Shown one piece after another: positions 5,112-30,475 of a DNA stretch of 64,000 nt. Origin of the DNA: Octopus vulgaris. Its lineage: Eukaryota. The notes under the pieces were generated by a model, which saw nothing but the letters and a program-made list of their open reading frames with translations, did no database searches and was not told the origin of the DNA. Position 1 is the first letter of the stretch. Each line of letters starts with the position of its first letter. Both the position numbers and the translations under genes were made by a program. Where the stretch lies: NCBI GenBank assembly GCA_951406725.2, contig CATOCA020000001.1, forward strand, positions 4,464,001 to 4,528,000. The letters run 5' to 3'.

Positions 5112-7920
5112 ATTTTCTCTCTCTCTCTCTCTCTCTCTCTCTTTTCTCTCTTTGTCTCTCACTCTCTTTCTCGTTTTCTTTCCTCTTTCTCTCCTTCATT
5201 CTCTCTCTATCTCCCTCTTTCATTTCTCTCCTTCTCTTTCTTTTCTCACTTTCTCTCTCTTTCCCCTTTTTCTCTCTCTTTCTTTCTTTCTCCTCTCTCC
5301 GTGTCTCTTTTACTCTCTCTCTCACTGTTCTCTCTTTGTCTCTCACTCTCTTTCTCGTTTTCTTTCCTCTTTCTCTCCTTCTTTCTCTCTCTATCTCCCT
5401 CTTTCATTTCTATCCTTCTCTTTCTTTTCTCACATTCTCTCTCTTTACCCTTTTTCTCTCTCTCTTTCTTTCTCCTCTTTCCGTGTCACTTTTACTCTCT
5501 CTCTCTTTTGTCTCTTTGTCTCTCACTCTCTTTCTCTCCTTCTTTCTCTCTCTATCTCCCTCTTTCATTTCTATCCTTCTCTTTCATTTCTCACTTTCTC
5601 TCTCTTTCCCCTTTTTCTTTCTCTCTTTCTTTCTCCTCTCTCCGTGTCTCTTTTACTCTCTCTCTCTCTCTGTTCTCTCTTTGTCTCTCACTCTCTTTCT
5701 CGTTTTCTTTCCTCTTTCTCTCCTTCTTTCTCTCTCTATCCGCCTCTTTCATTTCTTTCATTCTCTTTCTTTTCTCACTTTCCCTCTCTTTCCCTTCTCC
5801 TTCTCTGTCTTTATTTCTCTTTCTCTCTCCCTCTCTCTTCTTTTCTCTCTTTCCCATTTTCCTCTCCTCTCTTTCTCTCTCGTTTCCTTCCTCTTTCTCT
5901 TTTTCTTTTTTCTCTTATCTTTCTCTTTCTCTATTTCTCAATTTCTCTCTTTCTCTCTCCGTATCTCTCTCGCTTTCATTTCTTTCTCTTTCCCTTTTTC
6001 TTCTCTCTCTTTCTTTCTCCCTCTCTCTTCTTCCTCTATTTCCCTCTCTCTCATTCGTTTCTCTCTTTTTCCATTTTACTTTTCTCTGTTTCTCTCTTTT
6101 TCTTTCTCTTTCTCTCTTTTTCCATTTCTCTTTCTTTATCTCTCTCTCTCTATTACTTTCCTCTCTTTCTTTCTCTCTCTATCTCCTTCACTTCTTCTTT
6201 TCTCTCTTTCACCCAAACTTTTTTTTTCTTCTCTCTTTCTCTTTTACTTTTATCTCTTTCTCTCTCTTTCTTTCTGTGCTTCTCGTTGCCTTTTCTCTCA
6301 TTCACCCTCTTTCTCTTTTAGTTGTCTCTCTTTCTTTGATGTCCTTTCTCTCTCCCTTTCCTCTCACTTCTTCATTCATTCTCTCACATTTGCTTTTCTA
6401 TCTTTCTCTCTCTATGTCTCTTACCCTTTGTTTTCTCTTTCTCTCCCTTCCCTTCCCCTCCCTCTATTTTCTATCTTTCTTCCTCTCTCTCTATTTCCCA
6501 CTCTATTTTCTTTCCTATATTCCCCTCTTTCCATCTCTGTTTCCTTTCTCTCTCTATCTCTTTCTTTTCTCTCTTTCGCTCGTTTTCTTTGTCTGTTCTC
6601 TCTTACTCTCACATTTCTTCATTCTCTCTCTCTTTCTTGTTCTCGTTTCTTTTCTCTCTCTTTCTTTTCTCGCTCTCTCGCTTTTTTCTCCTTCTTTCTC
6701 CCTCTCGTTTTCTTTTTCATCCTTCTTCCTCTCTCTCACTCATTCATTTCTCACTTTCTTCCTCTCCTTTCTTTTTCTCTCTCTTTCTTTCCTCGCTCTC
6801 TCACATTTTCTCTTTCTTTCTCCCTCTCCTTTTCTTTTTATCCTTCTTCCTCTCTCTCACTCTTTCATTTCTCTCTTCCTTCCTCTCGTTTCATTTTCTC
6901 TCTCTTTCTTTTCTCGCTCTCTCGCTTTTTTCTCCTTCTTTCTCCCTCTCGTTTTCTTTTTATCCTTCTTCCTCTCTCTCACACTTATTTCTCTCTCTCT
7001 TCCTCTCGTTTCTTTTTCTCTCTCTTTCTTTTCTCGATCTCTCGCTTTTATCTCCTTCTCCCTCCCTCTCGTTTTCTTTTTATCCTTCTTCCTCTCTCTC
7101 ACTCTTTCATTTCTCTCTTTCTTCCTCTCGTTTCTTTTTCTTTCTCTCTTTCTTTTCTCGCTTCTCGCTTTTTTCTCCTTCTTTCTCCCTCTCGTTTTCT
7201 TTTTATCCTTCTTCCTCTCTCTCACTCTTTCATTTCTCTCTTTCTTCCTCTCGTTTCTTTTTCTTTCTCTCTTTCTTTTCTCGCTTCTCGCTTTTTTCTC
7301 CTTCTTTCTCCCTCTCGTTTTCTTTTTATCCTTCTTCCTCTCTCTCACTCTTTCATTTCTCTATTTCTTCCTCTCGTTTCTTTTTCTTTCTCTCTTTCTT
7401 TTCTCGCTTCTCGCTTTTTTCTCCTTCTTTCTCCCTCTCGTTTTCTTTTTATCTCACTCTTTCAATTCTCTCTTTCTTCCTCTTGTTTCTTTTTCTCTCT
7501 CTTTCTTTTCTCGCTCTCTCGCTTTTTTCTCCTTCTTTCTCCCTCTCGTTTTCTTTTTATCCTTCTTCCTCTCTCTCACTCTTTCATTTCTCTCTTTCTT
7601 CCTCTCGTTTCTTTTTCTCTCTCTTTCTTTTCTCGCTCTCTCATTTTTTCTCCTTCTTTCTCCCTCTCGTTTTATTTTTATCCTTCTTCCTCTCTCTCAC
7701 TCTTTCATTTCTCTCTTTCTTTCTCTCGTTCCTTTTTCTCTCTCTCTTTCTTTCCTCTCTTGTTTTTCTTTTTTCAATCTCATTCTCTTTATCTTTTCTC
7801 TCCCTCTTTCTCTGTTTCGTTTCTCTTTTTGTCTTCTCTATAATTCTCTCTCAATTTTCCTTTTCTTTCTTCTATTTTTCTATTCCTCTCTTCTTTTTTC
7901 TCTTTCTTTTTCTTTCTCTC
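5112..7920. repeat. 2.8-kb polypyrimidine (CT-rich) tract with cryptic ~120-bp tandem units
   Basis: Almost exclusively C/T on +; the unit CCCTCTCGTTTTCTTTTTATCCTTCTTCCTCTCTCTCACTC recurs at ~120-123-bp spacing from ~6690 to 7700. Confidence 0.95.
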
Positions 7921-12630: not shown

Positions 12631-12704
<74 letters not shown>

Positions 12705-12755
12705 TATATATATATATATATATTATTATATATATATATATAAATATATATATAT

Positions 12756-13318
12756 AACAATGATAAATATCAATGTGAGTTATATATAGTAGCGGTAACA
12801 CAACGTGACGTATTTTTGCCATTTCAATATGGCTAAACCCTAAGGGTGGATGCTACTGTAGTTTTTAGCCCCAGGAGGACACACTCCTCCAGCTGGCCAT
12901 AGACACACTTTCTGTGTCCTGTCAGTATTTGTAAAGGGAAGTCATCCTTCCCGTCTTCAACTTATGATACACACGGACTCGAGTTTCAAGGTATTGACCT
13001 CTCGTCAGCGTGTGACAATCATAGTTGTCGCCGAGAATTAGATTTCCTTCACAAATACTTATACTTTTTCCAGCGTCCACTGTCGCTGATATTGAAAAAG
13101 TGACATCAAACAATGATAAATATCAATGTGAGTTATATACAGTAGCGGTAACACAACGTGACGTATTTTTGCCATTTGACTTCCCTTTGCAAATACTGAC
13201 AGGACACAGAAAGTGTGTCTATGGCCAGCTGGAGGAGTGTGTCCTCCTGGGGCTAAAAACTACAGTAGCATCCACCCTTAGGGGTTAGCCATATTGAAAT
13301 GGCAAAAATACGTCACGT
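12756..13318 (-). mobile_element. Non-autonomous hammerhead-containing retroelement (retrozyme / Penelope-like pLTR) in (TA)n
   Basis: 353-bp monomer with a 69-bp direct repeat (12756-12824 = 13109-13177), a 142-bp inverted copy (12803-12944 vs 13177-13318), a 47-bp unpaired tail and (TA)n on both sides. Confidence 0.82.
12970..13014 (-). ncRNA. Minimal type I hammerhead ribozyme
   Basis: Minus strand: CACACG-CTGACGA-GAGGT caat ACCTT-GAAA-CTCGAG-TC-CGTGTG = stem I, CUGANGA core, stem II, GAAA, palindromic stem III, GUC site, stem I'. Confidence 0.9.
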
Positions 13319-13869
13319 ATATATATATATATATATGTATGTATATGTATATGTATTTGTGTGTGTGTGTGTGTGTGTGTTTCCATTTGCTGTTACTGAA
13401 AATTGCTCAGCAATGAACGATTTGATTATCATTTTCCCTGTTAATAGACAAACCATTGGAATAAGTGATCCCTTGAACAACAGGTAAGGGTTAATAACAT
13501 GAAGGGGATCCAGATGCAATTAGAATGGATCAATAATATACTCATACAACCCATGGTAGTATGGAGAAAAGCTGTAAAATGATTGCTTTATATGCATATA
13601 CGTACATATATAAGTCTATGTATGTGTATTCTCGTTTACATGTGTGAGTAGCTGTATGGCATAGTGATTCCGGTGTTACCCTCACAATAGCTAGATCGTG
13701 GGTTTGATTCTTGCAATACCCTTCCTTTCCCAAGACTTCCGAATGTTCGCCTGCTTTCCTAACCAGTGGAGTGGCATCATTGAAAACGTCAAACAATGTA
13801 AAGCACATTGTGACCAGTGATGTGTAACATCTGGCAGTATACTCGATCATGTGACTACATGATTATATA

Positions 13870-15379: not shown

Positions 15380-15809
15380 GAAGTTGAAGGTCTATGGAGA
15401 CACAAGAAGAAAGGCAGGACAGGCACGGAGACAAAGAAATGTCGTAGAGACACAACAGCAACAGGAAGTAAAACATCAGTTTCAAACAACTAGTCAAGCC
15501 TACTGGAGGGAACAAGAGACACCAGAGGGGAAACGACAGAGGTTCGAGTCTCAAGCCATTAGAAAATCCAGCTTAAGAGAATATACGTTAACAGAACAAC
15601 TTCAAAGTAACGCAGATAGAAATGCCTGCTCAAGAGAAGAGGAAACATCAAAGTAACGACAAGTCAGGTTGGAATTTAAAACTTTATCTTTTGGAGAGGA
15701 GCGACTTGTCACCTTTAACGAAGATCTTAATACATAAGCATTACGAAAGATGCTTTATGAATACATTTGTGTAGAGTACACACTGGGTCAAAGGTCGGGT
15801 GACTGCAAG
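15380..15809 (+). mobile_element. Helitron-derived relic with STPR-like (ETxEqR..RL) coding remnant
   Basis: Frameshifted METQEERQDR / REQETPEGKRQRFESQ..REEETSK*RQVRLE repeats followed by a hairpin-like GGGTCAAAGGTCGGGT and CAAG|T (CTAG|T in the mirror copy at 44433). Confidence 0.5.
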
Positions 15810-30328: not shown

Positions 30329-30475
30329 TAGAGTATATGCATATATACACACACATATGTAGATGCATATACTCAACATTTAGACATACTAAACGACTTA
30401 TACGTAAGTGTCTAAAAGTGTATGTGTATGTAGATGCTTATATATAAATATATATATATACATATATATATATAT
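30329..30475. other. Unique spacer / symmetry centre of the giant palindrome
   Basis: Only unpaired segment between the arms; contains its own short inverted repeats. Confidence 0.9.

Follow-up and report, generated by a model that had tools for sequence, protein, structure and literature searches.

A young 353-nt hammerhead retrozyme of Octopus vulgaris with two start sites, its probable copying by a Penelope-type enzyme, and a LINE that targets it

The genome of Octopus vulgaris harbors a young 353-nt retrozyme which is likely copied in trans by a Penelope-type enzyme, from two fixed priming points on one RNA that is itself probably circular. One copy lies in the 64-kb stretch of DNA analyzed here (hereafter the window). 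Our sequence-only reading had proposed a non-autonomous retrozyme with the Penelope-type arrangement of direct repeat, inverted arm and tail in (TA)n, and both the structure of the copies and the covariation among them support this proposal. The sequence data thus support the assignment of the element to the non-autonomous, Penelope-type non-LTR retrozymes, an already known kind. Taken alone, it is an ordinary member of a class in print; the additions made here are the rule that governs its ends, together with the single template, and a site-specific LINE.

Anatomy of the Retrozyme Copy in the Window

The features of the copy are collected in Table 1. The anatomy first proposed (353-bp monomer, repeats, tail and (TA)n) matches base for base. 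The 69-bp direct repeat (12756–12824 and 13109–13177, spacing 353) presents one mismatch, and the 142-bp inverted arm pair (12803–12944 and 13177–13318) presents two. Arm A, with 422 nt, exceeds one unit, and the inverted arm overlaps it by 1 nt. No ATG ORF of at least 30 aa lies wholly within the monomer, save a 41-aa frame entering the TA flank, and the repeat junction is crossed by a 38-aa frame.

The copy differs from the family majority at 7 positions. Position 12988 is U in this copy and C in most others. The insertion and its flanks are duplicated on the same contig, 2.77 Mb away (locus L002, G000:C31:1706144), and the duplicate, which has C at 12988, shows only this single substitution relative to the window copy, at the foot of helix II; the change therefore postdates the insertion.

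Elsewhere in the window, positions 1–689 hold tandem 84-bp units coding for C2H2 zinc fingers, which run into an N gap. Positions 15527–44715 constitute an inverted duplication of about 29 kb centered near 30400, with arms mostly 93–100% complementary, which is either a real palindrome or an assembly artefact. Positions 48900–62000 are a long (GA)n-rich tract followed by almost pure A/T low complexity.

Table 1. Features of the retrozyme copy, in positions of the window
Feature	Position	Strand	Remark
Left (TA)n target microsatellite	12633..12755		
353-nt monomer	12756..13108	minus	Minus strand is the RNA sense; cDNA arm begins at monomer position 1 (start site A)
47-bp tail	12756..12802	minus	Equals the spacing of start site A (monomer 1–8) to site B (monomer 40–56)
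Type I hammerhead	12970..13014	minus	Helix I of 6 bp, CUGACGA, helix II, GAAA, short helix III, GUC
8-nt palindrome of helix III	12977..12984	minus	Predicted dimer interface; palindromy retained via compensatory changes in relatives
Private C-to-U change	12988	minus	Foot of helix II, CpG context; not in duplicate locus L002
20-bp LINE target (monomer 260–279)	13015..13034	minus	Empty here; elsewhere in the family, flanks the L1/Tx1-type LINE as its duplication
69-bp beginning of second unit	13109..13177	minus	Terminal redundancy
142-bp inverted arm (monomer 48–189)	13177..13318	plus	Begins at site B, 13318
Right (TA)n/(TATG)n flank	13319..13356		

Genome-Wide Distribution of the Family

The genome searched comprises 2.8 Gb in 227 contigs, and for two of its retroelement proteins the nearest named homologs are octopod. 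The monomer gave at least 164 matches, a count drawn from the 40 scored among 2235 candidates, and most of them are 97–99% identical. The 20-nt ribozyme core has 479 exact matches genome-wide against none for the reversed control, so the hammerhead is not a chance motif. A motif common to the monomer and to its older relatives gave 4952 matches, that is about 5,000 units including relatives. The copies diverge from the majority by 1.2% on average and occur in tandem, with arms of up to 2122 nt, at dispersed loci on many chromosomes. The family thus presents the structural attributes of retrozymes: a non-coding unit of 353 nt (150–450 nt in the class), one type I hammerhead per unit, and dispersed tandems. 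Copy number and flanks also bear out the sequence-only reading, as copies are many and a TA-rich flank was found at 103 of 118 arm starts.

For the analysis of insertions, 81 distinct ones were retained, about half picked by similarity and half by position. Left out before this count were 8 loci overlapping the same insertions, the segmental duplicates L002 and L017, the second copy in L031, the LINE composites L059 and L082, and the fragments L083 and L084. Two hammerheads 6.3 kb apart on contig C9, considered as terminal repeats of a Penelope-like element (PLE), turned out to be a segmental duplication. Locus L083 also contains, at 5530–6050 (minus strand), an element of about 500 bp that has several motifs in common with the monomer, among them the 5′ half of the hammerhead, but in rearranged order; it is possibly a differently permuted ribozyme.

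Among the papers listed in our search of the openly accessible literature on octopus Penelope and hammerhead elements, none concerned this element. An earlier entry for the retrozyme or the LINE family may exist, for example in Repbase.

The Hammerhead Ribozyme

The hammerhead is the sole site in the window that passes the core-plus-stem-I scan, and its predicted cut falls between 12976 and 12975 on the minus strand. It had been described as a textbook minimal type I hammerhead. Type and strand stand, but it is not minimal: helix I has 6 bp, helix III 2 bp with a palindromic tetraloop and helix II 4–5 bp, which makes it a canonical metazoan type I hammerhead in the terms of PMC4209133, whose account of the minimal form gives no helix III and a long helix II. 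Infernal with Rfam, suggested as a check, returned no hammerhead match for the window or the region, neither at the gathering score nor at E ≤ 10; the reality of the motif was therefore judged by comparison of its relatives.

In an alignment of 20 sequences, with relatives 72–96% identical, 93% of the cells are paired and 8 of the 20 pairs show double changes. The core pair C3-G8 is CG in 15 sequences and UA (U3-A8) in 5, the inner pair of the palindrome flips between GC (11 sequences) and CG (7), and helices I and II also show double changes among relatives. The core is thus kept across the 20 sequences, with compensatory changes, as the first description had expected of the copies. None of 500 shuffles reached the covariation score, this control being lenient as related sequences can beat it without structure, and slid controls pair at 23–52%. 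In 10 of the 20 sequences, the pair at the foot of helix II does not form.

As the core and the palindromic helix III covary across subfamilies, the hammerhead is likely an active, dimer-type ribozyme, and likely under selection. Covariation of this sort is expected of a working dimer-type hammerhead (PMC4209133). Fold prediction gave a core mostly inactive in the monomer, helix II having a probability of 0.01 for the window copy and of about 0.3 for a majority-type copy. The monomer fold is strongly self-paired (z −6.3), and the predicted dimer fold with paired palindromes lies 4.9 kcal/mol above the MFE. Among the Xenopus dimers reported in bioRxiv 10.64898/2026.07.22.740005, 8 of 9 were without cleavage.

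Two Fixed Start Sites

The arms begin at two places. A total of 111 of 118 arm starts fall either at monomer 1–8 (or 352), which we call site A, or at 40–56, site B, and the two sites are about 46 nt apart. Simple two-arm insertions, consisting of a partial tandem and an inverted 5′-truncated copy, account for 42 of the 81, and both ends could be classified in 37: the combination is A+B in 36, B+B in one and A+A in none (p = 2.8e-10). The position-sampled loci L050–L095 gave A+B in 14 of 14 classifiable insertions. Single-arm insertions (n = 34) start at B in 27 cases, at A in 5 and elsewhere in 2. Also, among 9 loci inspected, two insertions outside (TA)n are flanked by target duplications of 12 and 13 bp.

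A tail equal to the distance between two internal start sites, with extension of both strands, has been described by Frangieh et al. (PMC11167929), and a tail at one end only was noted by Craig et al. (PMC8557442) and Arkhipova et al. (PMC3846280). The contribution of this family is the strict A/B pairing of the ends, together with a single template.

The arms are 5′-truncated at scattered points, and the length of the inverted arm differs between loci. This variation in length and in start site, together with the truncation and the covarying core pair, speaks against a satellite or an inverted-repeat DNA element with a hammerhead-like motif present by chance. The silence of Rfam and the inverted ends of many copies would suit such an element, which we nevertheless find scarcely credible.

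The junctions between arms are not hairpins (fold-backs), and some of them show microhomology. The arm ends lie within 20 nt of each other in 2 of 37 insertions (4.3 expected), the longer arm is A in 17 two-arm insertions and B in 19, and the arms overlap exactly by at least 3 nt at the junction in 9 of 37 against 5% expected. These figures bear on the published proposal that the inverted arm of Penelope stems from antisense self-priming by fold-back (PMC3846280), not from a second nick. Fold-back also predicts alleles common to both arms, such as those described below; however, the ends here are not hairpin-like, either arm can be the longer one, and the 19 cases with a longer B would need a stop exactly at A, in mid-template. 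Fold-back is in our opinion improbable for this family.

Nature of the Template

The two arms of an insertion carry the same variants. Minor alleles are common to both arms in 43 of 45 cases against 11% (326/2880) for random arm pairs. Counted from substitutions only, the distances are 0.74% within arms, 0.77% between arms and 1.68% between loci. Also, 12 rare alleles, in 7 of the 37 loci, are fixed in both arms. Considering the fixed A/B ends, the variants common to both arms and the lack of fold-back, the sequences suggest that both nicked strands prime on one RNA, that is, twin priming on a single template.

The template was first proposed to be circular or multimeric, which agrees with the variants common to the units of one insertion and with the 116 of 131 arms that read through the predicted cut site, a count biased by the choice of loci for holding the core. 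Arms stopping at the predicted cut site number 2 against 3 expected. Within single insertions, 11 rare alleles are fixed across 3–6 units, and most of them were seen at no other sampled locus. We consider a circle the likeliest template, with fair though incomplete confidence. Retrozyme circles of 170–400 nt have been described, and their role as template of retrotransposition is put forward as a proposal in PMC7229834.

The main competitor is an uncut linear multimer transcribed from a tandem parent locus; in that case no circle would be copied and the ribozyme would be dispensable for mobility. We hold this to be less probable than the circle. In the in vitro system of the anole element, the RNA used was uncleaved, and mutation of the hammerhead left insertion unaffected (PMC11167929). 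Young uniform parents would also yield uniform daughters. Moreover, an allele is present in at least two but not all units at 13 sites, and the arrays in L004, L041 and L042 look mosaic. Some arrays are therefore not derived from one uniform circle, and these few mosaics demonstrate a part for switching between templates or for multimers as well. On the other hand, the 11 alleles fixed in 3–6 units need a bottleneck of one unit somewhere in the lineage, and the covariation of core and palindrome makes it likely that the ribozyme is under selection. A cyclic contig in run X6 also argues for the circle: this run, only guessed to be RNA, contains one self-closing contig of 383 nt (353 + 30), a pattern that a tandem transcript or DNA would give as well. 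The LINE body described below is almost uncovered in X6, which says nothing on LINE expression. None of the sequencing runs is on record as RNA.

Candidate Autonomous Partners

The link between the retrozyme and PLEs rests on the insertion signature, not on homology. No autonomous element sharing sequence with the monomer was found in 20 loci of one PLE family, taken as the best-scoring candidates. Among the 50 best-scoring loci of GIY-YIG PLEs, two (L253 and L259) carry a retrozyme relative next to a Neptune-like ORF, in both cases as a separate insertion. The PLE-like ORF in L083, considered as a partner, is 2.8 kb away from the hammerhead-bearing relative at that locus and is part of a different, AT-rich family, which has ORFs of about 840 aa and is not similar to the monomer. 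A second young PLE family (L115–L134) codes for asparagine-rich proteins of about 840 aa in AT-rich ORFs; the core-plus-stem-I scan passed no hammerhead in it.

By its behavior, the best candidate is a very young GIY-YIG family (L243–L258, L262) with many intact 781-codon frames, which targets (TA)n and which we provisionally term Neptune-like. Its 765-aa protein presents an RT followed by a C-terminal GIY-YIG domain; upstream there is an additional ORF of some 470 aa, and the terminal repeat contains a hammerhead-like motif of the U3-A8 type. Copies end in (TA)n at either of two sites spaced by 40 nt, and in 3 of 3 inverted copies both sites are used, one at each end. A link to the Naiad elements mentioned in the first description is not supported, as Naiads are without a canonical hammerhead (PMC8557442), and the (TA)n family found here has its RT before the GIY-YIG domain.

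A LINE Inserted in the Retrozyme

Two of the position-sampled retrozyme copies ran into a LINE. Its full-length copies are 5.34 kb long and flanked by a 20-bp duplication of monomer 260–279; the two sides differ at 0–1 positions in 9 of 11 copies and both carry subfamily-specific alleles. Fifty LINE 3′ ends were tagged, and the first 30 by position were read. Among these 30, 27 pass into a retrozyme relative some 20 nt before the hammerhead, on its upstream side; a single insertion accounts for two of the 27, as its two arms. Two further ends retain a target remnant, and one is off-target. Target alignments score 111–497 against at most 40 for shuffles, and 20 of the 27 have an intact-looking core that begins 19–24 nt past the end of the LINE. 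The 27 of 30 compare with the more than 20% of flanks by which target preference is recognized in PMC4494074.

Targets were clustered at 22 loci, 8 of the 30 being omitted (3 without target, one second arm, 4 with deletions). They form 8 clusters at 90% identity, with a median identity of 81% against 95% for the LINE ends, and in 24 of the 71 pairs with LINE identity of at least 97% the targets are at most 85% identical. Diversity is thus much greater among the targets than in the LINE, so that its insertion has been repeated and site-specific: in at least 8 subfamilies, the near-exclusive target of the LINE is a site that precedes the hammerhead by 20 nt. A single chance insertion into a retrozyme, amplified since as a composite, would account for L140, where the LINE is present in both arms and the composite was thus moved by the retrozyme ends, and for the many copies with broken ORFs. 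Yet it accords poorly with the incongruent identities of target and LINE, with the subfamily-specific alleles of the duplications, with the tandem LINEs of L147 and L212, between which a single target copy lies, and with 5′-truncated copies that the target follows (L141, L147, L197), and we judge it improbable.

ORF1 of the LINE presents a zinc knuckle and ORF2 the order APE, RT and zinc finger, with human L1 ORF2p as best solved match. There is no named Tx1 reference among its homologs, and we call it L1/Tx1-type. Since 17 of 19 LINE 3′ tags run into monomer 279–1 and stop at A or B in (TA)n, and one copy has an intact 1129-aa ORF2, one could think that this LINE is itself the partner enzyme source and that its 3′ end gave rise to the retrozyme as a SINE-like derivative. 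This view is largely refuted by the retrozyme sequence on both sides with the 20-bp duplication, which places the LINE inside the monomer; in L138, moreover, the LINE lies in another target with its own short duplication and no retrozyme, and the tail and inverted arms match the local GIY-YIG family. It is therefore very improbable.

There is no poly(A) run where the LINE meets its target, and this junction is 59 nt away from the predicted hammerhead cut. In L150 (3171–3264) and L145, the sequence upstream of the LINE is from another retrozyme subfamily than the sequence downstream, and in L150 about 95–105 nt upstream of the LINE are of the young retrozyme type. This mixture hints at a start of LINE transcription within the upstream retrozyme, or at a switch of template.

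Other transposons are already established as targets of some Tx1 families (PMC4494074), and the same paper also lists unnamed satellites among Tx1 targets. Our literature searches found no paper on a hammerhead element as target of a Tx1 LINE; the search that joined Tx1, Penelope and target specificity led to a paper on Utopia.

Proposed Mechanism and Comparison with Known Systems

We propose that tandem units are transcribed, of which there is a weak hint in RNA. Two hammerheads would then pair via the palindromic helix III and cut after GUC, as fold and covariation suggest, and a host ligase would close the 353-nt circle, as may be supposed from the literature. A Penelope-type enzyme would make staggered nicks 12–13 bp apart at (TA)n on both strands, the spacing being that of the duplications at the two non-TA sites. 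One 3′ end would prime at B; roughly every second event would also involve priming by the other 3′ end at A, 46 nt off. The cDNAs would pass the cut site for up to 6 units and be joined head-to-head, often at short microhomology, which would give the arrangement observed in the DNA and, in the window copy, an arm A of 422 nt and an arm B of 142 nt. The autonomous LINE targets the site 20 nt upstream of the hammerhead and is sometimes carried by the retrozyme ends, as in L140.

In L1 twin priming, two primers on one RNA give a head-to-head inversion with microhomology joins, and the second primer anneals at variable internal sites. In the octopus element, neither start varies in this way, the two being fixed, and an arm may be longer than one unit.

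The metazoan non-LTR retrozymes of mussel (350–390 nt) and axolotl (331/353 nt) share with the octopus element a non-coding tandem unit of about 350 nt, one type I hammerhead with a short palindromic helix III, a self-paired fold and thousands of copies (PMC7229834). Unlike them, the octopus element has insertions so young that the two fixed start sites, the inverted arms and the (TA)n target can still be recognized; a term search of the main text of PMC7229834 gave no "inverted", "microsatellite" or "octopus". Non-autonomous PLEs (bioRxiv 10.64898/2026.07.22.740005; MRC1-type of Chlamys, PMC8557442) are alike in their tandem and inverted insertions, tail, microsatellite bias and coexisting autonomous PLEs, but the octopus element is without a sequence match to a PLE terminal repeat. 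The Poseidon element PAc of Anolis (PMC11167929) also presents two internal starts that define the tail, cutting and extension of both strands and an AT-rich target. Its tail is 30–40 nt against about 46 nt here, and the in vitro results given for PAc show no difference in start site between strands, whereas the two ends of octopus insertions almost always differ.

The octopus LINE resembles the target-specific Tx1 LINEs (Tx1L into Tx1D, Tx1-Mar into Mariner-N4, Keno into U2; PMC4494074) in its zinc-knuckle ORF1, its APE-RT-zinc finger ORF2, its single site in a multicopy element and its hitch-hiking. Unlike theirs, its target is a ribozyme-bearing retroelement, hit 20 nt from the hammerhead. 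To the targets of sequence-specific LINEs it adds one of a new kind, and it provides an endonuclease whose 20-bp site is defined.

The origin of the tandem, inverted and tailed insertions of Penelope elements is called open in PMC8557442 and PMC11167929. A short young family offers many clean insertions and a sharp prediction, namely opposite strands, opposite start sites and one RNA, which suits the existing in vitro system with a 353-nt substrate. More speculatively, a dimeric Penelope-type enzyme might give each strand its own start site while rolling round the ribozyme-made circle, and the LINE might have become specialized for a site beside the hammerhead so that the host ribozyme, 59 nt downstream, trims its read-through RNA, which would then need no poly(A) tail. 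If this tentative scheme is true, it would explain the inversions and tails of Penelope elements, and the LINE would be one that borrows the ribozyme of another element.
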